Below are positions 1 to 12,650 of a stretch of DNA of 64,000 nt, piece by piece (positions within the stretch are counted from its first letter, which is position 1; the number at the start of each line of letters is the position of its first letter). The position numbers and the translations under genes are program-made. The DNA is taken from the NCBI GenBank assembly GCA_964429215.1, contig CAYSAY010000001.1, positions 182,127-246,126 of the forward strand. The letters run 5' to 3'. Source of the stretch: an uncultured Gammaproteobacteria bacterium (GTDB taxonomy: Bacteria > Patescibacteriota > Microgenomatia > UBA8517). The notes below the pieces were generated by a model. That model made no database searches, was not told the DNA's origin, and was given only the letters and a program-made list of their open reading frames with translations.

Positions 1-503
1 TTAGTTCGTCTTTTGCTGCAATCTTCCCTAATTTTCCCTCCTGTACCAATCCACAAGGAACATTGATTGCTTCTTATGATTCAGGTAACCATGGAGTAGT
101 AGGGGGAACGTCTTATTCAGGGAGTGATAAGGTTTACAAACTAGATGAGAAAAGTTTAACTCAATGTTTATGTACAGTTGATGGACAGGGTATTCAAACT
201 AATTGGTGGAAAGCATCTTCGCTTGATGAAACTCAAATTAATATTTTGAAAAATGAAGGATGGATTTATGTCCCTACAGGAAGTGTGTGGGGACTAGATC
301 AAGATTCTTATATGGCTATCAATTCTAAATATTCTTGTACTAGTTCTGATAATATTGGTGGTTCAAATATTTCTAACAATTCTACTTTGGGTCAAGTCTT
401 AGGCCTAGCTTTTACCGGCAATGCAAAATATGTTTACTCAATTATAATCTTAGGTTTTTTACTATTAATATATGGACAAATTCTTCACAGGGCTAGGAGT
501 TAG
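1..503 (+). CDS. 5'-truncated surface protein; C-terminus carries an LAFTG motif followed by a hydrophobic helix and a basic tail (sortase class E-type sorting signal)
   Basis: The frame stays open from position 1 to the ORF listed at 63. C-terminal sequence ...LGLAFTGNAKYVYSIIILGFLLLIYGQILHRARS* has the motif + TM + basic tail layout of a cell-wall sorting signal. A sortase gene follows immediately. Confidence 0.55.
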   Translation, partial: SSSFAAIFPNFPSCTNPQGTLIASYDSGNHGVVGGTSYSGSDKVYKLDEKSLTQCLCTVDGQGIQTNWWKASSLDETQINILKNEGWIYVPTGSVWGLDQDSYMAINSKYSCTSSDNIGGSNISNNSTLGQVLGLAFTGNAKYVYSIIILGFLLLIYGQILHRARS

Positions 504-1002
504 TTTAATAATTTTTGGTTCATTCCTTGTTTATCAAAGAAATAATCCTAACAGAGTTTCGTTTGCATATAGTGAAGAGGTAGCAGTAACTTCAAATATA
601 ATAAAATCTAATGTACCTTCAAGAATTTTAATTGAAAGCGTAGGTATTAATCTACCTATTGTTCAATCCGAGATAAGTGAAAATAAATGGGAAGTTACTG
701 AAAATGGTGTATCGTATTTAACGAGTTCTGTCATACCAGGTGAAATAGGAAACAGTATTATGTATGGACATAATTGGACTAATTTATTAGGTAATTTAAT
801 AAAGGTTAAAACTGGGGACAACGTAGAGATTTATTTTGAAGATGGAAGTAAAAAAATATTTAAAATTACATTGATACAGGAGGTATCTCCAGATGATGTT
901 TCTATACTTAAAGCAACTACTGACAAAAGGATAACGTTATATACGTGTTCCGGATTTCTTGATTCAAAACGATTTGTAGTAATTGGCAATTATTCGATAT
1001 AA
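472..1002 (+). CDS. Sortase family transpeptidase (class E-like)
   Basis: N-terminal signal-anchor. Conserved His in MYGHNW, catalytic TLYTCSGF Cys motif and a downstream Arg. Overlaps the end of its putative substrate gene. Confidence 0.75.
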   Translation: MDKFFTGLGVSLIIFGSFLVYQRNNPNRVSFAYSEEVAVTSNIIKSNVPSRILIESVGINLPIVQSEISENKWEVTENGVSYLTSSVIPGEIGNSIMYGHNWTNLLGNLIKVKTGDNVEIYFEDGSKKIFKITLIQEVSPDDVSILKATTDKRITLYTCSGFLDSKRFVVIGNYSI

Positions 1003-1011
1003 TATATTATT

Positions 1012-1503
1012 GTGTATCGAAAATTAATTATATTAATTGCAGTAACATTATTCCTTGGAGGTGTCATGACTTCAAAATTTGCTAATACGAAAGTGCAAAT
1101 TTCGCAAAATATTAATAATGTAATTGCCACGCCAACTCAGATTTCTACTGTTACTCCTACTTCAACAGCAGTTCCAACAACACAACCAACTAAACTAGCA
1201 AGTGCAAAGCCGACGATAATAACTCCAGTTAGTTTTATTAAAATATATTCTAATTCTAGAATTATTTCTCAAAGTGATAATTCCATTGTGTTTGAAAGTG
1301 ATGATAGTCCTGATGTGATCACTGCCTTTTACAAAAGTTTAATTGAACAAAGTGGGTCAATAGTTACATCGTTTGTAACAACAAAAACAAACGGAAATGT
1401 GCTAAATAAATTAGCAGGTGTTGTAGATAATCAGTCTATTGAAATTGAAATTAAAAGAGAGAAAACTGTATCTAAAACTTCAGTTGTAGCCTCAAGAAAA
1501 TGA
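1012..1503 (+). CDS. Hypothetical secreted/membrane-anchored Thr/Pro-rich protein
   Basis: GTG start gives an N-terminal TM helix followed by a T/P-rich low-complexity region. The start is uncertain: an ATG with a GGAGG Shine-Dalgarno sequence lies at 1066. Confidence 0.4.
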   Translation: MYRKLIILIAVTLFLGGVMTSKFANTKVQISQNINNVIATPTQISTVTPTSTAVPTTQPTKLASAKPTIITPVSFIKIYSNSRIISQSDNSIVFESDDSPDVITAFYKSLIEQSGSIVTSFVTTKTNGNVLNKLAGVVDNQSIEIEIKREKTVSKTSVVASRK

Positions 1504-1582
1504 TATTGACAAGTAATTTTATAAAGCATAGAATTTATTCTATTGAATTGTATTTGATAGAAATTAATAGTAATTTATTTGA

Positions 1583-2212
1583 ATGAATGGACTCGGTCAA
1601 ATGGTAAGTAAGCTTTTGAGATTCATCTCCAATCTTTTACGGCTTCTTTTTAAAGGAATTTTACAAAAAAAGAATTTGCCATTTATTTTAATTTTAATAG
1701 TGATTTCTTGTGTAATATATTTTTTTACAAATGGTGTTGGTAATTTACTAAGTAGTCAAAATAGTAAGTCAGGACAAATACAAGTTGCTCCTGCAAAAGC
1801 TACAACTTCTATAAATAAAGAATTTACTTTTCCATTAAAGAATGAAAAAGGATTAGAAGTAAGTAAAGTAAAATATATTATTGAATCAGCTGAACTTCGA
1901 AATGAAATTGTTGTTAAAGGACAAAAGGCTAGGTCTGTAAAGGGAAGAACATTTTTAATATTTAATTTAAAAGTTGTAAATGATTTTAAACAGAAAATTG
2001 AAATTCAAACATCTGATTACTTGAGACTTTCAGTTAACGGAAATAAAGATGCTTGGTTGGCTCCAGATATACACAGTGATCCAGTTGCGATTCAAGCTAT
2101 TTCTACAAAATACATAAAAGTTGGATTTGCCATTAATGAAAGTGATAAAGATTTATTACTAAAAGTAGGTGAAATAAATGGAGAAAAACAAGATGTCGAA
2201 GTTAAATTTTAA
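1583..2212 (+). CDS. Hypothetical membrane-anchored protein
   Basis: Long ORF with an N-terminal TM segment; no family recognised. Confidence 0.45.
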   Translation: MNGLGQMVSKLLRFISNLLRLLFKGILQKKNLPFILILIVISCVIYFFTNGVGNLLSSQNSKSGQIQVAPAKATTSINKEFTFPLKNEKGLEVSKVKYIIESAELRNEIVVKGQKARSVKGRTFLIFNLKVVNDFKQKIEIQTSDYLRLSVNGNKDAWLAPDIHSDPVAIQAISTKYIKVGFAINESDKDLLLKVGEINGEKQDVEVKF

Positions 2213-2213
2213 A

Positions 2214-2387
2214 ATGAAAAATTATTCAACACAAATACTATCACCAATTTTATTGGAAGATGTTAAAGAGGCAATTAAAAGTATTACTGATTATGGTAGT
2301 GTAGAAATATATATTCAAGGGGGAGTAGTCAGCCAAATTAGTACGAGAAAAATTAAGAAAACTGATCAAAAATTGAAGATGGTATAA
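2214..2387 (+). CDS. Small hypothetical protein (58 aa)
   Basis: ORF begins at the ATG immediately after the upstream stop; no recognisable family. Confidence 0.25.
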   Translation: MKNYSTQILSPILLEDVKEAIKSITDYGSVEIYIQGGVVSQISTRKIKKTDQKLKMV

Positions 2388-2397
2388 ATTATGGGAC

Positions 2398-2426
2398 TTG
2401 ACAACTTAAATAACAGTAAATATATT
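2398..2426 (+). promoter_or_regulatory. Sigma70-like promoter (TTGACA-N17-TATATT) for the 2595 surface-protein gene
   Basis: Perfect -35 hexamer and near-consensus -10 with 17-nt spacing, about 170 nt upstream of the ATG. Confidence 0.45.
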
Positions 2427-2445
2427 GTGATTAAGTAGAATAATA

Positions 2446-2513
2446 GCTGACCGCAAACGGAGGCTTTTTTCACTCAGAGAAATCTGGGGGAAAGAAGCCT
2501 CTGTTTTCGTTTT
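2446..2513 (+). promoter_or_regulatory. Conserved 5'-leader element (GCTGACCGCAA[A/C]CGGAGGC ... hairpin ... U-rich tract), candidate attenuator or cis-regulatory RNA
   Basis: The 19-nt core recurs in inverted orientation at 8384-8402, upstream of the paralogous minus-strand gene. GGAGGC at 2459-2464 pairs with GCCTC at 2497-2501 and is followed by TGTTTTCGTTTT. Both leaders end with GGGGGTGA before the ATG. Confidence 0.4.
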
Positions 2514-2594
2514 ATAAGGAAATAGGGTGAAGTGCCTCTTAGATCTCATCTAATAAATGAGAGGAGGAAAATAGATTGGGGGTGAATATATATA

Positions 2595-3830
2595 ATGAAC
2601 AAATTTAAAAAAGTAGTAGCCTCTGCAATAGCTGCAGGATCCCTTTTAGTCAATGGATTCATGCCAGTTTTTGCTCAAACAACAATAGTACTTTCAGGAA
2701 ATGGAACAAATTCAGATAACACTGCAAATGTTTCAGTTACTCAAAGCACAGTTGTTACTCAAAGCAATAATGCAGATGTTACAAATAAAGTATATGCCGA
2801 TTCCAAAACAGGAGATAACAAAGCAGAAGATAATACAGGTGGAGACGTATCAGTTAAAACTGGTGACTCAGATGTAACTGTTGATGTTAAAAACACACTT
2901 AATAATAATTCTGCAAACGTTGACTGTTGTGGAGCAACAAATACTGATGTACTTATTTCAGGAAATGGATCAAATAGTGATAATGATGTAAATCTTACTT
3001 TAGGTGGAGATAAAAATACCTTAGTAACACAAAACAACAATGCTGATGTATACAATCACGTTGATGTGGATTCAGATACAGGCGATAACGATGCAGAAGA
3101 CAACACAGGTGGAGATGTGTCAGTCGAGACCGGTGATGCAACTGTAAACGTAAACGTAAATACAACTGCTAATGCAAATTCTGCCAGAGTTGGTGGGAAT
3201 GGAGAAGCAGGTTCTTTATCAGCAAAAATCCTAGGAAATGGTACATCTAGTGATAACGAAATCGATTTAGACTTTGGTGGTTCACTTTGGATAACTCAAG
3301 ATAATGAGGCTGATGTGGATAACAAAGTTGATGTTGATGCCGAAACTGGAGATAACAATGCAGAAGATAACACAGGTGGAGAAGTATCAGTCAATACTGG
3401 AGACGCCGATGTTACCGTTGACGTAGAAAACGATGTCAACTTCAATTGGGCAGACGCTGACTGCGGATGCTTATTGAATGATGTGTTGGCAAAGATCGAT
3501 GGTAATGGTAGCGATACAGATAACGATATCACTGCAAATCTTGGACAAACACTTGGTGTAATTCAAGATAATAGTGCAGGTGGAGAAGGAGAATTGGAAA
3601 ATACTGTCTATGCTGATGCAGAAACTGGAGAAAATGATGCTGAAGATAACACTGGTGACCCTGGTGCTGATCCATCAATTGAAACCGGAGATGCAACAAC
3701 AGAGGTAGCGCTTGATAATTCAGGCAATTCCAATGTTTATGGTCAAACACCAGATTGGGAATTCCCAGGTACTGGATTTGATTTCCACTTTTCGTTCGAT
3801 TTGAGCGATTTGTTGGACTGGTTAAGTTAA
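2595..3830 (+). CDS. Secreted repeat protein, paralog family A (NG..S.N...TGDN.AEDNTGGDVSV.TGDA modules with CC motifs)
   Basis: Signal peptide MNKFKKVVASAIAAGSLLVNGFMPVFAQ; at least four internal repeats; paralogous to 3935, 6129 and 7707(-). Confidence 0.6.
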   Translation: MNKFKKVVASAIAAGSLLVNGFMPVFAQTTIVLSGNGTNSDNTANVSVTQSTVVTQSNNADVTNKVYADSKTGDNKAEDNTGGDVSVKTGDSDVTVDVKNTLNNNSANVDCCGATNTDVLISGNGSNSDNDVNLTLGGDKNTLVTQNNNADVYNHVDVDSDTGDNDAEDNTGGDVSVETGDATVNVNVNTTANANSARVGGNGEAGSLSAKILGNGTSSDNEIDLDFGGSLWITQDNEADVDNKVDVDAETGDNNAEDNTGGEVSVNTGDADVTVDVENDVNFNWADADCGCLLNDVLAKIDGNGSDTDNDITANLGQTLGVIQDNSAGGEGELENTVYADAETGENDAEDNTGDPGADPSIETGDATTEVALDNSGNSNVYGQTPDWEFPGTGFDFHFSFDLSDLLDWLS

Positions 3831-3848
3831 TTATGTAATTTTTTGGAA

Positions 3849-3885
3849 CTAGAGTTGCTTACTTACACTTCAGTAAGCACTCTAG
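3849..3885. terminator. Intergenic hairpin (about 14-bp stem with one bulge) between surface-protein genes
   Basis: CTAGAGTTGCTTACT..AGTAAGCACTCTAG inverted repeat. No U-tract, so terminator function is uncertain. Confidence 0.3.
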
Positions 3886-3934
3886 AATCCAAGAGATAAA
3901 GAAGTAAAAAGATAGAAAAGATATAAAAATAAAA

Positions 3935-6136
3935 ATGATTAATAGAATTAAAAAAATACTTTCAGTAATTACTGTTATTGCTTTGCTGTTTACAAATACA
4001 GGGTTAGTTTTTGCTCAATCAATTCCTACTCCTCCTCCGGCACCAACAATGCCATATGTTCCAACTGCACCACCAGCACCAACAATGCCACCTGTTCCAA
4101 CTGCACCACCAGCGCCAACAATTGCACCAACTAATGCTCCTACTCCGCCACCTGTTCCAACTGCACCACCAGCGCCAACAATTGCACCTACAATAACACC
4201 AACTCCTGTCCAAACTAGTGTACCTATTATAGAGCCGATTTTACAACCAACTGCCACTCCTTTAGTTTTGTCACAATTTGTTGATACTGAGAATTTAGGT
4301 GGACAAGAAGCAGATGGTGGAACTGGCTCAAACTCTATTAATACTGGGAATGCTACAAATGATGGATTAATTGTAAATGATTTAAATAGTAATTTGTCTG
4401 CTGTTCTTAGTGACGGAACAGGAAATGGAAGTGCTGAAATTACTAACACTGGAAATGGTGCTGGGTCAACAAATTCTGGATCAGCAGTTGTTGTAAATAA
4501 TACAAATACTGATCAATCTAATTTGGTAGTACTTGAAAATGGGTTGTACCAAAGCGCTGTGACTGGAGATAATTCAGCAAGTAAGAATACTGGAGGCGAC
4601 TCAGCTATTACTACTGGAGATGCTAATGTGACTGGTACGATATTAAACTCAGTTAATACTAATGTAGCAGGTGTTTTGGTTTCTGAGTTTAATGTTATGA
4701 ATGATACTACGGGAGATATAATTCTTGATTTTGTAAATAATTGCATAACTAATTGTGGAACACCTTCAAATACTACTATTAAAAATTCAGGTAATGGTGC
4801 TGATTCTACAAACACTGGATCATTAGATGTAGTAAATAACAATTCAACTAATCAATTAAATGATGCAGTCATTGCAAATGAAATGGATTTGTTTGCAAAT
4901 TCTGGTAATAACGTAGCAGATAAAAATACTGGTGGCGATTCAACAATTGTGACAGGAGATGCTAATGTTGCAGCAAACTTATTGACGTTTGCTAATAATA
5001 ACATTGCAGGTAATGTTATCTATTCTGTTGTTAATATTTTTGGAGATTTGATAGGCGATATTATATTACCTGAAGAATTACTTGCAGGATGTTGCGGAAC
5101 AAATCCTGTAACTCTAGCTAATTTAAATAATGGTGCAGATTCTAATAATGTAACTAACTATTCAAATGAAATAACAGATTCTTTAACACAAATTAATAAT
5201 TTAGAGATTGAAAATAATTTAATCTTTGACGCTGCAACTGGACAAAATGATACTTATGCAAATACAGGTGGAGATTCATCAATTATAACAGGGGATACAA
5301 GTGTGAATGCTAAAGTATTAAATGTTGCAAACAATAATATAAGTGGTGAAAATATGTGGCTTGTAATAGTTAACCAAGCCGGTAGATGGATAGGGAAAAT
5401 ATTAGGTACTGCGGACGGTACAAATATTGCTGGAAGTGAAGGCTTTGAATTTGAAGTAGATGAAAATGGAGGAGTAACAGTTGCAAATGCTGGAAACGGT
5501 GCAGGATCAACCAATACTGCAACCTACAATGAAACAAATAATAATGATACAACCCAAGTTAATAATGCAAAAATTGTTAATAATTTGGATTTGGCTGCAA
5601 ATACAGGGGGTAATTCTGCATCAAAAAATACAAACGGAGATTCGTCTGTGACTACGGGTGATGCTAATATCATCGCTAATATAGTCAATTTTGTTAACAA
5701 CAATATAACAGGAAGTGGAAAATTAGTTGTAACAGTTGTTAATGTGTTTGGTAGTTGGTTGGGTGATTTTGTAGGACCTGGATTTACAAAAGAAGTTCAA
5801 TCGAATGAATCGCCAAGTAATACGGCTATTGGTGGTAGTGATATGCATGTCAATACTAATAGTCAAACTGATAATAACGAGAAAACTAGTGGTTCAAGTA
5901 ACTCAGTAGTTGGTAATAATTCAGTTGTCAAATTAGTTTCACCTGTAGCTTTTATACCAAAGACTAAAGTTCTAGGAGCTAAAATTAGTGTAGTAGACGG
6001 TAATCAGTTGGCAAATAATACAGAAATTGACTCCGATAAAAAGAAAGTTATTAATATAAATTTCGCTTGGGTATTAGCTGCACTTTTCCCAATAGGTATC
6101 GTATCAATTATTTTACGAAGAAGATCACATGCTTAA
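3935..6136 (+). CDS. Large (733 aa) cell-surface repeat protein with a Pro/Thr-rich linker and a C-terminal TM anchor; paralog family A
   Basis: Signal peptide, then PPAPTMP.VPTAPPAPT tandem repeats, then family-A modules (NTGNGAGSTN...TGDNSASKNTGGDS..TGDANV) and CCG motifs. C-terminal TM plus RRRSHA tail. Confidence 0.65.
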   Translation: MINRIKKILSVITVIALLFTNTGLVFAQSIPTPPPAPTMPYVPTAPPAPTMPPVPTAPPAPTIAPTNAPTPPPVPTAPPAPTIAPTITPTPVQTSVPIIEPILQPTATPLVLSQFVDTENLGGQEADGGTGSNSINTGNATNDGLIVNDLNSNLSAVLSDGTGNGSAEITNTGNGAGSTNSGSAVVVNNTNTDQSNLVVLENGLYQSAVTGDNSASKNTGGDSAITTGDANVTGTILNSVNTNVAGVLVSEFNVMNDTTGDIILDFVNNCITNCGTPSNTTIKNSGNGADSTNTGSLDVVNNNSTNQLNDAVIANEMDLFANSGNNVADKNTGGDSTIVTGDANVAANLLTFANNNIAGNVIYSVVNIFGDLIGDIILPEELLAGCCGTNPVTLANLNNGADSNNVTNYSNEITDSLTQINNLEIENNLIFDAATGQNDTYANTGGDSSIITGDTSVNAKVLNVANNNISGENMWLVIVNQAGRWIGKILGTADGTNIAGSEGFEFEVDENGGVTVANAGNGAGSTNTATYNETNNNDTTQVNNAKIVNNLDLAANTGGNSASKNTNGDSSVTTGDANIIANIVNFVNNNITGSGKLVVTVVNVFGSWLGDFVGPGFTKEVQSNESPSNTAIGGSDMHVNTNSQTDNNEKTSGSSNSVVGNNSVVKLVSPVAFIPKTKVLGAKISVVDGNQLANNTEIDSDKKKVININFAWVLAALFPIGIVSIILRRRSHA
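4020..4200 (+). repeat. In-frame tandem DNA repeat (about 45 nt unit) encoding the P/T-rich linker
   Basis: Repeated gttccaactgcaccaccagcNccaacaatNcc units visible directly in the sequence. Confidence 0.6.
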
Positions 6137-7160
6137 ACGATTATTCATTTTAACACTGCTCCCTGCTGTGTTTTTATTTTATGTTGGTCCATTTATTCCA
6201 TACGTTGTAGCTCAGGAATTAATTATTTCAGGAAACGGAAGTAGCTCTACTAGTGAAGTTTTAGTAAACACAAATAATACAGAAAGTATTAGCCAATCAA
6301 ATACGGCAAATATTGTAAATAACATTGAAGTAATTGCAAATACTGGTAATAATAATGCAAGTGATAATACTTCAGGAAGTGTAACTATTTCAACTGGTGA
6401 TGTCTTAACTGATTTGGTTGTTAGTAATAATATTAACAGTGCTACTGTTAATAATTCTTGTTGCGATGTAGAAAATAATTCTTCAGTCTCTATAGTTGGA
6501 AATGGTAGTGGATCTGATAATAGTGTCGTTTTAAATATAAATGATGAAAATTCCATTGTTGTGAATCAGTATGCAAATATAGAAAATAAAGTAATTGGAA
6601 CTGCAAATACAGGAAATAATAGTGCAAATAACAATACAAGTAGTGAAGTGACAATTCTTACAGGAGATATTAAAGTTAATATCAAAATTAATAATTACCC
6701 AGTCAATACTTCTTTGGTTAATTTTGGTAATAGTCCGTTAAGTGTATTTGCCAACATTTCTGATAATGGTGCAAACACAACAAATTACGTATCAGCAAAT
6801 ATCAATAAACCTAAATTTGTTGGTGTTAATAATTACTTTGTTGCTAATAATATTTCTTACTGGGATTTAAAAACAGGTGGAAATACTGCTAGTGGTAATA
6901 CTTCGAGCAAAGTATTAATTAAAACTGGGAATGTGTTTTTTGATTTACTAATTTCAAATGCAGCTAATATAGGTGGAGTTGATTTAGGTTGTTGTGGTGT
7001 TGATCCAGATGATCTGGATGATCCCAATGATCCTGATGACCCAAGTGACCCAGGTGGTTATATAGGTGGCGGAGGTGGGAATGGGGGGTCTACTCTTGGA
7101 AGTTCAATTAATTTTAATGGTCCTGCAATATTAGGTTTGTCTGCAACGTCGTCAAAATAA
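6129..7160 (+). CDS. Secreted repeat protein, paralog family A, with a Gly-rich and PDDP-rich C-terminus
   Basis: Signal peptide; ISGNGSSSTSEV...NTGNNNASDNTSGSVTISTGDV and CCDVEN/CCGVDP motifs. Start overlaps the upstream gene end, suggesting an operon. Confidence 0.6.
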   Translation: MLKRLFILTLLPAVFLFYVGPFIPYVVAQELIISGNGSSSTSEVLVNTNNTESISQSNTANIVNNIEVIANTGNNNASDNTSGSVTISTGDVLTDLVVSNNINSATVNNSCCDVENNSSVSIVGNGSGSDNSVVLNINDENSIVVNQYANIENKVIGTANTGNNSANNNTSSEVTILTGDIKVNIKINNYPVNTSLVNFGNSPLSVFANISDNGANTTNYVSANINKPKFVGVNNYFVANNISYWDLKTGGNTASGNTSSKVLIKTGNVFFDLLISNAANIGGVDLGCCGVDPDDLDDPNDPDDPSDPGGYIGGGGGNGGSTLGSSINFNGPAILGLSATSSK

Positions 7161-7179
7161 GCAAAGCTTGTAATAAATT

Positions 7180-7674
7180 ATGAAAAAAAATTTGATGATA
7201 CTGTTTATAGGTTTTTTATTAGGATTTATATTTTCAAGAATTGAATCACCTGTCATAGTTCATTCAAATGAAGTGCTGATGTATAACGAACTTCCTACAA
7301 GAATATTAATTCCTTCTGTATCTATTGATACTTCAGTCAAAAAGGCATTAATTATAAATGGATATTGGCAAGTTTTTCCTAATTCAGCTGCTTGGGGCGA
7401 TCAATCTGGCATTCCTGGAAATATTGGAAATCAAGTAATATTTGCTCACAAAAGAAGTGGATTGTTTGCAAACCTGAAAGACGTAAAAATTGGAGATAAA
7501 ATTTATGTTTTAACAAGTAAGGGATCATTCGCTTATGAAGCTCGAGAAATAAAAGAGATAAACCCAAATGAAATTGATGTTGTTAAGCCAACAACAGACG
7601 AGACATTAACTTTATACACATGTTCTGGATTTGCCGATACGAAAAGATTAATAGTAGTTGGTAAGAAGGTATGA
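7180..7674 (+). CDS. Sortase family transpeptidase (second copy)
   Basis: Signal-anchor; FAHKRSG His region; TLYTCSGF catalytic motif identical to the first sortase. Confidence 0.75.
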   Translation: MKKNLMILFIGFLLGFIFSRIESPVIVHSNEVLMYNELPTRILIPSVSIDTSVKKALIINGYWQVFPNSAAWGDQSGIPGNIGNQVIFAHKRSGLFANLKDVKIGDKIYVLTSKGSFAYEAREIKEINPNEIDVVKPTTDETLTLYTCSGFADTKRLIVVGKKV

Positions 7675-7708
7675 GAACCCCTTGGTACAATCAAGGGGTT
7701 TCTCTTTT
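7675..7708. terminator. Bidirectional rho-independent terminator between convergent genes
   Basis: GAACCCCTTG-gtacaat-CAAGGGGTT followed by TCTCTTTT. Confidence 0.6.
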
Positions 7709-8306
7709 AAAGACTATTGTTACCACTAGTAACAGTTAGTCCTGATGTTGTCAGACTGTTTCCAGTAGAAACTTCGACAGTACCATTTGTGTTTTTGTTT
7801 GCTTTATTTTTACCTGTTTTTGCCTTAGATTTAACTTTTGCATTTACTACGGTTGATGTTCCTTGAGTAGTGGCATTAGTTTTTAAATCTGTTACTAAGA
7901 CAGAATTATTACTATTGGCACCATTATTTGATATTGTTGATAGTGCTTCAGGATTTAGTTCTGTATTGCAGCAACAAGGATCTGAAATAGTATTGTTTCC
8001 TCCAGTTACTGAAACTGTAGATGTTGCAGTTGCATTACCTGTGTCAATTGTTACATCTCCACCGGTATTGCTGTTTGCTTTATTTCCTCCTGTTGTAGCA
8101 TTTGATTTTACAATTGCATTTACCTGGGTTACATTCCCTTGTGTAATTGTGCAATTATTTGAGTTCGTCAATACAATTGTATTTGTAGAGCTTGCTCCAT
8201 TATTTGTAATAGTTGAGTTCTGTGCAAATACTGATGTAAATGTTGAACCTAAAATTAAAGCGCTAGATATCACGCCTGTTGCTAATTTGTAGACAAATTT
8301 GTTCAT
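7707..8306 (-). CDS. Secreted repeat protein, paralog family A (inverted copy)
   Basis: Signal peptide MNKFVYKLATGVISSALILGSTFTSVFAQ; NTGGDVTIDTGNA modules; CCCNTE motif. Its leader shares the conserved element with the 2595 gene. Confidence 0.6.
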   Translation of the reverse strand: MNKFVYKLATGVISSALILGSTFTSVFAQNSTITNNGASSTNTIVLTNSNNCTITQGNVTQVNAIVKSNATTGGNKANSNTGGDVTIDTGNATATSTVSVTGGNNTISDPCCCNTELNPEALSTISNNGANSNNSVLVTDLKTNATTQGTSTVVNAKVKSKAKTGKNKANKNTNGTVEVSTGNSLTTSGLTVTSGNNSL

Positions 8307-8383
8307 TTTTAATCACCCCCTTTCTTGGAGAGTGATTTTTCACTCGATTGAAGTAATAAAAAACATTAGTTATGTTCATAATT

Positions 8384-8452
8384 GCCTCCGGTTGCGGTCA
8401 GCAAATAACTTAATATCAATAATAATAGCAATATTGGTTGTTTATGTGTCAA
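8384..8452 (-). promoter_or_regulatory. Paralogous promoter and leader element of the 7707-8306(-) gene, inverted copy of 2398-2464
   Basis: The reverse complement contains TTGACA (8447-8452) and GCTGACCGCAACCGGAGGC (8384-8402), then GAGTGAAAAATCACTC and GGGGGTGA before the ATG. Confidence 0.4.
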
Positions 8453-8515
8453 CTGTATCTTTGTGGTATTAAAACCACCCTTTATATATAAATGTAAAGT
8501 TGTTATTATGAATGG

Positions 8516-9424
8516 ATGGATAAACTGCTACACCTATTAATTCCTCGTGAGAGTAATAATCACAAGGCTAAAATATTACATCCTAATAGTTTGTTGATTG
8601 TCACTATGTTGTTTTTGTTTTTTCAGGTATTTGTTAGCAATTTACCTAAGTTAAAGCCTGACATTTTAGGATATGCTGCAAATATAGCGCCAGATGAAGT
8701 TGTAAGGTTAACTAATCAAAAGAGACAAGAAGCAGGCTTATCTTTATTAACTTATAATTCTGATTTAGCCGGTGCTGCTTATACCAAAGGTGTTGATATG
8801 ATTACAAAAGATTATTGGGCACATGTGGCTCCTGATGGAACTCAACCTTGGAAGTTTTTTAATGATTTCGGATATAAATATAAATATGCAGGCGAAAATT
8901 TAGCAAGAGACTTTACAAATCCTAGTTCTGCAGTTGATGCATGGATGAACTCGCCTACTCACAGGGAAAATATTTTAAATCCTAAATATAAAGAAATTGG
9001 TATTGGTGTAGTTGAAGGAGATTTGGCAGGAACTGACACTACAATTATTGTTCAATTTTTTGGATCTACATATTCAGATAAAGTAGTACTACCAGTAGCA
9101 CAGGCAGCACAAACAGAGAAAAAAGTGATTGCCACCGAAGCTCCAAAAATAGTTGCTACACCACTTGCTGTTGAAGTAAGAGCGCCTGAGGTTAACACCA
9201 TTGTAACTACGGAGTCACAACAGGTTTTGATTTCGCCATTTAGTACTACTAAAAATGTGTCATTAATTGTGGTTGGAATATTACTTTTGATATTTGTTAT
9301 TGATGCAGTCCTTGTGTCTAAGAGAAGGATTACAAGGGTTGCAGGACGAACATTTTCACATGTTGCCTTTTTAGGTATGATTGTTGTAATTGTATTAATA
9401 TTAAAGTCGGGAGAAATATTATGA
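8516..9424 (+). CDS. CAP/SCP (PR-1-like) domain protein with N- and C-terminal TM segments
   Basis: DYWAHVAPDG...GENLA...HRENILNPKYKEIGIGV is typical of the CAP superfamily. Hydrophobic segments at both ends. Confidence 0.65.
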   Translation: MDKLLHLLIPRESNNHKAKILHPNSLLIVTMLFLFFQVFVSNLPKLKPDILGYAANIAPDEVVRLTNQKRQEAGLSLLTYNSDLAGAAYTKGVDMITKDYWAHVAPDGTQPWKFFNDFGYKYKYAGENLARDFTNPSSAVDAWMNSPTHRENILNPKYKEIGIGVVEGDLAGTDTTIIVQFFGSTYSDKVVLPVAQAAQTEKKVIATEAPKIVATPLAVEVRAPEVNTIVTTESQQVLISPFSTTKNVSLIVVGILLLIFVIDAVLVSKRRITRVAGRTFSHVAFLGMIVVIVLILKSGEIL

Positions 9425-9437
9425 TGAATGGAACAAT

Positions 9438-9701
9438 ATGATGGAAAGTATGTCTAAACATTTACCACATTACATAAGCTTAATTGGTATTTTTATTGCG
9501 GGTATTATTGGTTTTTATTATTTTCCATATGATAAATCATTCCAAACAGGTCTAGTTGTTGCCTTAGCAGCTTCATATATTTCATGGGGAGTTATTCATC
9601 ACTCCGTCCATAAAGATATCTGTTTACCTGTAATTTTTGAATACGTAGCTGTTTCTGTCCTCGGATTAGTAATTGCTTTATCGTTGATTTATAGGACGTA
9701 A
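9438..9701 (+). CDS. Small integral membrane protein
   Basis: 87 aa, with two or three predicted TM helices. Confidence 0.4.
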   Translation: MMESMSKHLPHYISLIGIFIAGIIGFYYFPYDKSFQTGLVVALAASYISWGVIHHSVHKDICLPVIFEYVAVSVLGLVIALSLIYRT

Positions 9702-9731
9702 CTACTGTACAATATCAGGGCTATTTAGATT

Positions 9732-10610
9732 ATGAAAAAGATAACAAAAGCAGTCATCCCAGCAGCTGGATTTGGAACTAGATTTCTGCCTCAAACCAAG
9801 GCTATGCCTAAGGAGATGCTCCCCATTGTAGATAAGCCTGTAATTCAATATGTTGTTGAGGAAGCAGTTCAAAGTGGTATTAAAGACGTTGTAATTGTTA
9901 CGGGATCATCTAAAAGGGCAATTGAGGATCATTTTGATATGCCTAATGCAGATCTTGTTAATAATTTGATTCAAGGAGGGAAAGAGAAACTTCTTGAGGA
10001 AGTTAGAAAAATAGCAGAGATGGCCAATTTCATTTATGTCAGGCAAAAAGGTATGTACGGAAATGGAACGCCAGTACTTTCAGCAGAGTCTGTAATTGGA
10101 AATGAAAGTTTTGCAGTTCTTTGGGGGGATGAATTTATAAGTTCGGATCCACCAAGACTTGCTCAAATGATGAAAGTTTATGAAAAGTATGGTGGAGTAG
10201 TTATCTCTGGAGTCAGAATTGAATCAAAAGATAGACTTTCTAAATATGGAATTGCTGATTTGGAACCAGTTGAGGACAAAGTATTTAAAATTAAAGAGAT
10301 TATTGAGAAGCCACTTCCAGAAGAGGCACCCTCCAATATGGCTACACATGGAGCATATATATTGCCTCCTGAAATATTCCCTGCACTTCGTGGACTTAAG
10401 CCTACTAAAGGTGGAGAAATTTGGCTTGTTGATGCTATTAATGTTTTACGTGAGCAAGGAGTGCCTGTATATTGTTGCGAGATTGAAAACGGAGTGTATT
10501 ATGATACTGGTAACAAACTTGAGTATATTAAAACAGTAATTGAATTTGCTTTAAAGCATAAAGATTTGAACGGAGAGTTTAGAGAGTACCTCAAAAGCCT
10601 TTCATTATAA
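9732..10610 (+). CDS. galU: UTP-glucose-1-phosphate uridylyltransferase
   Basis: N-terminus KAVIPAAGFGTRFLPQTKAMPKEMLPIVDKPVIQY is a canonical GalU signature. Confidence 0.85.
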   Translation: MKKITKAVIPAAGFGTRFLPQTKAMPKEMLPIVDKPVIQYVVEEAVQSGIKDVVIVTGSSKRAIEDHFDMPNADLVNNLIQGGKEKLLEEVRKIAEMANFIYVRQKGMYGNGTPVLSAESVIGNESFAVLWGDEFISSDPPRLAQMMKVYEKYGGVVISGVRIESKDRLSKYGIADLEPVEDKVFKIKEIIEKPLPEEAPSNMATHGAYILPPEIFPALRGLKPTKGGEIWLVDAINVLREQGVPVYCCEIENGVYYDTGNKLEYIKTVIEFALKHKDLNGEFREYLKSLSL

Positions 10611-11812
10611 TGACTAGCGCAGAAAAAAGAATATTTGGCTTGAATTTAAACAAAAGGCTCATGTTTGGTACAAGGTTTTTTATTGAACTTAAATCAATTT
10701 TTGCTGTAGTACAGCTTTTTTACCTTACTCGTGGTTTAAATCCTTCAGAAATAATTTATTTAAGTTTAGTTTGGAGTGTCACAACATTATTTAGTGATTT
10801 GCCATCTAGTATTATTGCAGATCGATTTGGGAGAAAGAAGACTATTATTTTAGGCATATTTTTAACCGCAATTTCGACATTATCTTTATTTTTTGCGGAA
10901 GGGTTTTGGCAAGTTGTACCTGTGCATATTTTAGGTGCTATGGGTATTTCATTTTTTTCTGGCGCCGATCAGGCACTTTTGTATGATTCAGTGAAAGAAT
11001 TGGGCCAAGAAAAGTCAATGAATAGGATTTCTGGAAAATACTTTGCAGCAGCGAGTTTACCTAAAATTGTTGTACCTCTTTTAGGTAGTTACATTGCAAG
11101 AAATTTATTACCTACCCAATTTTTAATTTTAATAGGTATAGATTTTGTAGGTATGATAATAGCTTTAATTATCTCTACATTTCTAACAGAACCGATAATT
11201 AAAAATAAATTAAAAAATAGTTATGAATATTTAGCTGATGGAATAAAATTGATATCTCAAGATAAAACATTGTTGAAACTTGCTTTAAATAAAATTATGG
11301 TTTTGCAAGCGGCCTTTGTCTATTGGAGAATTTATCAAATACTTCTTCAAAATGCTCAAATGCCAATAATTTACTTAGGAGTTGTTTACACTATTTTCCA
11401 GGGTATAATGTTTGTAACACATTGGAATACTGAAAAAGTACAAAAGTTTTTTGGTCTTGTGAATTATGCGTTATTACCTCAAATATTAGGATTTATTGGA
11501 ATTGCATTTTCTCTACTTAGCACTAATCTTGTAGTAATATTTATTTCGTGTGTTGCGGTAATATTAGTAGGAACTTTTAGAGATCCATTTTTTATGACTC
11601 AAATGCAGGCTAGAATTCCTTCAGCTAATCGTGCAACTGCAACTTCAGCATTAAATACTATTAAAAATAGTAGTGATATACCAATACTTTTATTAATTGG
11701 TTATCTTACAAGTATTAATATTGATTATGTTTTAATCGTTTCAGGCGTAATGTTTTTAGCCTCAATAATATTTTTAAGAATTAAAAAAGAAGATCTTACG
11801 TTGCAACTATGA
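10610..11812 (+). CDS. MFS-type transporter
   Basis: About 12 TM helices; DRFGRKK motif in loop 2-3, typical of the major facilitator superfamily. Confidence 0.65.
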   Translation: MTSAEKRIFGLNLNKRLMFGTRFFIELKSIFAVVQLFYLTRGLNPSEIIYLSLVWSVTTLFSDLPSSIIADRFGRKKTIILGIFLTAISTLSLFFAEGFWQVVPVHILGAMGISFFSGADQALLYDSVKELGQEKSMNRISGKYFAAASLPKIVVPLLGSYIARNLLPTQFLILIGIDFVGMIIALIISTFLTEPIIKNKLKNSYEYLADGIKLISQDKTLLKLALNKIMVLQAAFVYWRIYQILLQNAQMPIIYLGVVYTIFQGIMFVTHWNTEKVQKFFGLVNYALLPQILGFIGIAFSLLSTNLVVIFISCVAVILVGTFRDPFFMTQMQARIPSANRATATSALNTIKNSSDIPILLLIGYLTSINIDYVLIVSGVMFLASIIFLRIKKEDLTLQL

Positions 11813-11837
11813 TATATAATGACTAATTATAACTGTT

Positions 11838-12650
11838 ATGAATAATGATATAAAAAAAACAAAAAATATTGAGGAAGTGAAATTATTACTTAGTCATAAA
11901 CGGCTTAATATGTTTGAAGCGTTATCTAATAAAAATTGGTTTAATCAAACTGATTTTGAAGTTGTTAAAAAGATTTTTTCATTGCCTGATGATTTTGATG
12001 GATACCTTAATGATTTAACAACAAGAAAGGATGAATATGGAGGATTAATTGTAAATAAACTGCATGATTTATTGCCTGGAAATTATTCTGTTTTATCTGT
12101 ATTTGAAGTTGTTTCTATTCAGACAGCTCAGCCATTTACTCATGAATACATGACTTGGAAATTTGGTCGTGATCAGGGATATAGAGGATTGATATTATTC
12201 GAAGAAGAAGGAGAAGTAAAATTCTTTATGTTAAGAAAAGCAGAAAAATTTGCAATTGGAGAGAGTGTTTATGAAACAATTGGAACTTTTATTAAAGAAA
12301 AACATATTAGTGAATCGTCGATACCTGATGAAGTTCAACACCAAATAGATAAAGAGTTGGGTATGAAAGATGTAAAAGTTAACAAATTTATACCACTTGG
12401 GAAAATTGCAGTTGATCCTGTCATGGCTAATTCAACACCTTCACTTTATGCTGTTACGATTGATTTGCCAGGGGATAATGATTTAGAGGAAATTAGAAAA
12501 AAAGTATATAAAACAAAACCAATTTCATTCAATTTAATTATTGAGCCTATTGAAAAAATCTGGGAATATGTAAATAAAACTGATGAGTCTTTTTTCTTGG
12601 CTGTTGTTTCAAGACTTACTTCTATGGGAATAATTAAACCCCAGGCTTGA
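11838..12650 (+). CDS. Hypothetical protein
   Basis: Long ORF with native AT-rich codon usage; no family recognised. Confidence 0.45.
   Translation: MNNDIKKTKNIEEVKLLLSHKRLNMFEALSNKNWFNQTDFEVVKKIFSLPDDFDGYLNDLTTRKDEYGGLIVNKLHDLLPGNYSVLSVFEVVSIQTAQPFTHEYMTWKFGRDQGYRGLILFEEEGEVKFFMLRKAEKFAIGESVYETIGTFIKEKHISESSIPDEVQHQIDKELGMKDVKVNKFIPLGKIAVDPVMANSTPSLYAVTIDLPGDNDLEEIRKKVYKTKPISFNLIIEPIEKIWEYVNKTDESFFLAVVSRLTSMGIIKPQA

Follow-up and report, generated by a model that had tools for sequence, protein, structure and literature searches.

Curli (CsgA/CsgB) and Fap are made of secreted, Asn/Gly-rich, β-solenoid-like repeats of 19 to 23 residues, with a free subunit and surface-held paralogs; the consensus of the curli repeat includes a G-x-N-x-A turn. 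Among the chaplins of Streptomyces, the long ChpA-C are anchored by class E sortases and the short ChpD-H, which have two conserved cysteines, are secreted. LPXTG-anchored adhesins such as PfbA and the SRRP binding region carry a β-helical passenger. S-layer proteins, usually without cysteine and usually highly variable, typically form a layer from one dominant protein. S-layer proteins that combine a β-helix with an interchangeable anchor are common among bacteria (10.1101/2024.05.28.596244). Our literature search returned no identified S-layer protein from the Microgenomates and no paper characterizing the envelope proteins of this group. Ultra-small and uncultivated, the Microgenomates form a large class of bacteria. 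Here we describe a Microgenomates locus in a 64-kb window (the whole stretch of DNA analyzed, 64,000 nucleotides) that encodes four paralogous secreted repeat proteins, A to D, which probably build an anchored structure on the cell surface.

A (2595-3830, 411 aa), B (3935-6136, 733 aa) and C (6129-7160, 343 aa) are encoded on the plus strand and D (7707-8306, 199 aa) on the minus strand; all four were verified as open reading frames of the window. Pairwise BLASTP E-values, computed for an assumed database of 1e8 residues (A-C, 7e-21; A-B, 1e-17; A-D, 2e-11; C-D, 2e-5), indicate paralogy far beyond chance. Alignment with a module profile (A3) resolves 13 full copies of an ~89-aa module and one half module: four in A (2682-3752), a half module and four long modules in B (4436-5800), three in C (6216-7004) and two in D (7710-8219); no extra copy beyond A-D occurs within the 64-kb window. 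The E-values and the 13 aligned modules bear out the initial annotation, made from the DNA alone, which had described degenerate modules shared by the four proteins. The module consensus reads GNGxxSxN…TGxNxAxxNTGGxVxIxTGDAxV… and is followed by a Cys pair; GNG, TG.N, NT and TG are invariant in the alignment.

Heuristic reading of the N termini assigns a Sec-type signal peptide (basic n-region, hydrophobic core, cleavage of the VFA↓Q or VVA↓Q type) to each of the four proteins, as had been noticed at the outset, and the same reading finds the pattern kept in their orthologs. The recurring paired cysteines are likewise conserved: C290/C292 of A is present in 63 of 63 orthologs, C270/C274 of B in 58 of 58 and the CC at residues 111/112 of C in 41 of 45. 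A has a further pair at residues 111/112, and D has CCC at residues 111-113 together with C52. Extra cysteines in some A orthologs were considered as long-range disulfides and proved to be separate local pairs. The commonest residues over A-D are Asn, Asp, Thr and Gly, in keeping with the composition first noted. A, B and C have a pI of about 4.1, as against about 8-9 for D (8.8 in the window), which is thus of opposite charge.

The family has no name. A-D match no Pfam or NCBIfam family, DUF11 included, and the Pfam annotation is empty for all 240 homologs listed. A profile search of PDB sequences gave a single chance match (E 2.4), an exact-sequence look-up of the proteins of the window returned no names and no accessions, and a literature search found no paper on the family. 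The initial annotation did not recognize the family either; the two observations that it had set against its own reading, a known domain such as DUF11 and missing signal peptides, were not encountered. The family comprises about 3,100 cluster representatives, and the homologs with an informative organism name all come from Microgenomates (CPR/Patescibacteria). The orthologs retrieved were of the A type only, with a search space of about 1.2 Mb for the leader models and the module HMM.

The repeat proteins A-D are probably β-solenoids. Structure models of moderate confidence (mean pLDDT 67 and 68) lend weak support to a predicted β-helical fold, as do the fold matches. The likeness to β-helical proteins proposed in the initial annotation stands to that extent, but the A model has no significant match by Foldseek (best E 0.011, TM about 0.05). 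Curli and Fap families head the Foldseek list with non-significant scores, and every module of A-D contains a G-x-N-x-A turn like that of the curli repeat. Together with the pairing of secreted subunits and anchored paralogs in one locus, this would suit a curli/Fap-type functional amyloid in which A is the fiber subunit and anchored B or C serves as a CsgB-like nucleator, a reading that we consider very unlikely. The modules are 89 aa long and have Cys pairs, unlike the much shorter repeats of curli and Fap. Profile autocorrelation is dominated by peaks at lags 179 and 89; at lag 22 its value of 0.068 barely clears shuffled controls, whose maximum averages 0.042 and reaches 0.094. A-D show no Pfam match to Curlin_rpt (PF07012) at E<=1, and hhalign of the A profile (A1) against CsgA returned nothing (probability 0.4%). 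The fixed four-module architecture, the conserved Cys pairs and an identity of 45-75% look like a folded globular or rod-shaped protein, not like a simple repeat of the amyloid kind. No CsgC/E/F/G-like gene was found among the proteins scanned, the neighbors being p163, p209, a DUF2292 protein and sortases; the locus lacks an outer-membrane secretion apparatus, and the organism has a Gram-positive-type envelope with sortase.

The strong acidity of A, B and C (Asp makes up 14% of A) and the large glycan-synthesis region adjoining the locus raise another reading, that the modules bind Ca2+ in the manner of RTX proteins, or act by binding or cleavage on a polysaccharide, a glycan of the cell wall or of the host, their surface location being incidental. 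It strikes us as very unlikely. There is no Pfam match to HemolysinCabind (PF00353) and none to a lyase family, and the RTX nonapeptide, GGxGxDxUx, is missing from the module consensus; the likeness of A-D to RTX β-roll proteins is a structural resemblance only. The invariant residues (Gly, Asn, Thr and Ala) are those usual in turns and ladders, not in active sites. The glycosylation genes downstream of D, for whose machinery the initial annotation had proposed A-D as candidate targets, are confirmed; they were counted as non-conserved neighbors, and only about 9 of ~51 loci have, after D, the CAP-p87 genes that lie between D and them in the window. A-D also differ from β-helix/RTX S-layer proteins such as RsaA of Caulobacter in lacking both the RTX motif and an SLH domain; neither SLH nor any other known wall-binding domain was found in A-D with Pfam and NCBIfam. 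Conserved cysteines, four paralogs in place of one dominant protein and an unusually high conservation set them further apart from S-layer proteins.

In their predicted anchoring the four proteins differ: B has a C-terminal membrane helix behind a long low-complexity stalk and C a sorting signal, and the acidic A and the basic D are both free. A, which ends in an acidic tail, and D have neither sorting signal nor membrane anchor. In B a Pro/Thr-rich linker follows the signal peptide, each long module has an additional hydrophobic hairpin, and the C-terminal part consists of a Ser/Asn/Thr-rich stalk, KKxxINFAW, a membrane helix (about 6059-6112) and RRRSHA; an invariant INLAW motif, the helix and a basic tail are present in its 58 orthologs. 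Helix and tail resemble a sorting signal, but INLAW stands in the position of LPXTG. In C an Asp/Pro/Gly-rich spacer accompanies the three modules. Among its 44 orthologs, 29 have LPxTG and 13 a motif of the L[SA]x[TA]xG type, so that the sorting signals come as an LPxTG type or an LSxTSG type, then helix and basic tail. In the window, C ends in ILGLSATSSK (7128-7157), a sorting motif followed by neither the membrane helix nor the charged tail seen in the orthologs. C is thus a predicted sortase substrate in most genomes, and its signal is truncated in the window.

A candidate enzyme lies directly downstream. Sortase 2 (7180-7674, plus strand, 164 aa; PF04203, E 6e-22) starts 20 nt after C, scores 56 bits against TIGR01076 (cutoff 39) and contains the motifs TLYTC and KR, read from its sequence; at least 36 of 54 loci have a sortase downstream of the C-type gene. 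Sortase 1 (472-1002, plus strand, 176 aa; PF04203, E 4e-20) lies upstream of A. Both retain the catalytic His, Cys and Arg on reading of their sequences, and both fall well under the class C sortase cutoff (38 and 49 bits vs. 160); Pfam finds no CnaB/SpaA Ig-like pilin domain in A-D. According to published work, sortase is near-universal in Microgenomates, and disulfide-forming enzymes of the MdbA/VKOR type are enriched in CPR (PMC6744442).

The initial annotation had placed both sortases in the family locus. This applies to sortase 2, given its place after the C-type gene (at least 36 of 54 loci) and the C-type sorting signals; for sortase 1 we rejected it. Just 7 of 57 loci have a sortase upstream of A, and sortase 1 pairs with a substrate of its own, a secreted, Cys-containing protein whose 3′ part (63-503, plus strand) encodes LAFTG, a hydrophobic segment and HRARS at the end. 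The full protein, read on a contig of the same organism (L070), has 184 aa. It is the predicted substrate of sortase 1 and a neighbor outside the A-D family.

This arrangement recalls the chaplins, which are also paralogous secreted surface proteins in which members with a sortase signal tether the others; the LAFTG of the neighboring protein is like their LAxTG motif. The module of A-D is a different and far larger one, without a match to the chaplin (DUF320) profile, and one paralog, B, is membrane anchored. C-type orthologs resemble PfbA and SRRP as sortase-anchored proteins with a predicted β-helical passenger, but the sequences are unrelated, and the sortase substrate here is one of four paralogs and is truncated in the window.

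Sixty-six genomes share one gene order: p209, DUF2292, A, B, C, sortase, D (reverse). Co-occurrence with A, counted by single-sequence phmmer and given as a lower bound, is 62/63 for p209, 59/60 for B, 44/57 for C, 36/54 for the sortase and 22/51 for D; the shortfall of D and the sortase may come partly from the limited sensitivity of phmmer. No protein of the locus is better conserved than A, which surpasses even the adjoining GalU-like cytoplasmic enzyme (75 vs. 56% and 61 vs. 45% identity in two example comparisons). From a variable antigen one would expect the reverse, and we rejected the label "hypervariable antigen"; the "principal surface antigen or adhesin" suggested initially is a poor fit for the same reason.

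Adhesins normally diversify. An adhesin reading would make A-D β-helical proteins placed on the wall by sortase and binding the host cell of an episymbiotic CPR bacterium, in the manner of PfbA or the SRRP binding region, which we judge unlikely. The C-type proteins are predicted sortase substrates, in line with such a role, but A and D have no anchor, A and B are 46-75% identical across orders with presumably different hosts, and A surpasses the neighboring cytoplasmic enzyme in conservation. That four paralogs keep a fixed order and have a leader in common points to a single assembly and not to alternative binding specificities. The adhesin reading does gain from the host-attached life of cultivated CPR bacteria (PMC11623550).

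The reading to which we give about an even chance (roughly 0.5) is that the locus encodes a multicomponent, Microgenomates-specific cell-surface structure, a coat or S-layer-like sheet or short fibers, made of β-rich repeat proteins of a single family. All four proteins would be exported through Sec and their signal peptides cleaved. Each ~89-aa module would form a short β-solenoid, and modules would pair into ~179-aa units; the Cys pairs, which close odd-numbered modules, would be oxidized and serve as caps or staples of modules or as cross-links between subunits. We propose A as the major subunit. Its own strong promoter would yield an excess of A, with a 3′ hairpin setting the gene apart, and A would associate with B and C as well as with D, which is oppositely charged. 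B would tie the assembly to the membrane, and C would be linked to peptidoglycan by sortase 2; in the lineage of the window, C, without membrane helix and charged tail, is possibly released or poorly processed. The conservation of A above the GalU-like enzyme fits a subunit constrained by many contacts. Against an S-layer-type structure we count the conserved Cys pairs and the strong conservation of A-D, and against a surface structure the incomplete sorting signal of C in the window, the substantial share of loci in which D and the sortase go undetected, the moderate pLDDT and the non-significant Foldseek result.

A locus kept across the class, with A above a housekeeping-type enzyme in conservation, is likely to be central to the construction of these cells or to their contact with the surroundings. 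The unnamed family of ~3,100 clusters offers targets for metaproteomics, antibodies, cryo-ET and heterologous expression; further targets are a sortase-substrate pair with two sorting-motif variants and a compact RNA element found only before A and D. The proteins could found a new Pfam family and the RNA a new Rfam family.

The RNA element lies in the leader of A. A promoter-like site (2398-2426, plus strand; TTGACA-17-TATATT, 11/12 matches), whose TTGACA box is conserved in relatives, precedes a structured leader of ~165 nt (fold z-score -5.1) that contains, at 2443-2513 on the plus strand, a 26-nt box hairpin (2443-2468) and a 22-bp hairpin with a U-run extending to 2513. Transcription would start about 13 nt ahead of the box. 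The leader of D (8380-8452, minus strand) has TTGACA (8452-8447), TATTAT (8427-8422) and the same box hairpin (8405-8380), which lies 20 nt from the -10 hexamer in both leaders; in the window, no matching long terminator arm follows the D box. The box is common to A and D, has no other occurrence in 2.39 Mb, and its stem covaries. No Rfam covariance model matches at E<=1 over positions 1-12000 of the window, and the leader RNA common to A and D is previously undescribed. We considered the A-leader hairpin as a mere terminator of the upstream operon and rejected this reading, since the hairpin lies downstream of a conserved promoter, the D box has equal spacing and the stem covaries. The promoter match, the structured leader and a stable hairpin 3′ of A (3838-3897, plus strand; without a U-run, in the same position in 56 of 57 loci) are signs of high, separately set expression of A.

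In the A leader the box hairpin overlaps the left arm of the 22-bp terminator hairpin, so the two structures exclude each other. Their competition resembles the design of protein-dependent antitermination, as in RAT/terminator leaders of the BglG/SacY type, where a short conserved 5′ hairpin overlaps the left arm of an intrinsic terminator; the box of A and D has a different sequence from RAT, and no gene for a PRD-type antiterminator was found among the proteins scanned. The shared hairpin would coordinate expression of A and D. A candidate regulator, and this is a guess, is the adjoining DUF2292 (YezD-like) protein (2178-2387, plus strand; PF10055, 25.7 bits vs. cutoff 22), which is small and presumably cytoplasmic, lacks a signal peptide, is encoded directly upstream of the A leader and is present in 56 of 63 loci. 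A literature search found no paper on the function of DUF2292, and a role in reading the box hairpin, if true, would be its first. The full combination, a Microgenomates surface layer or sheath of a new β-solenoid family with membrane, wall and free subunits and an antitermination switch at the box hairpin read by DUF2292, seems to us distinctly doubtful.

Two further proteins are encoded upstream, and neither has a family in Pfam or the PDB. In p163 (1012-1503, plus strand), present upstream in 37 of 62 loci, a Thr/Pro linker joins an N-terminal membrane helix to a conserved C-terminal domain (SFVxTKTNGNVLNKL). p209 (1583-2212, plus strand) has an N-terminal membrane helix and a conserved extracytoplasmic domain with an invariant ..IH.DP.. 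motif; its family numbers 1,286 members, all unnamed CPR proteins, with a weak DUF4352 match in 1 of 24. At the other end of the locus, a terminator-like hairpin of 12 pairs (7675-7701) lies where the genes for sortase 2 and D converge; in the scan it came up on the plus strand, with a T-rich tail.

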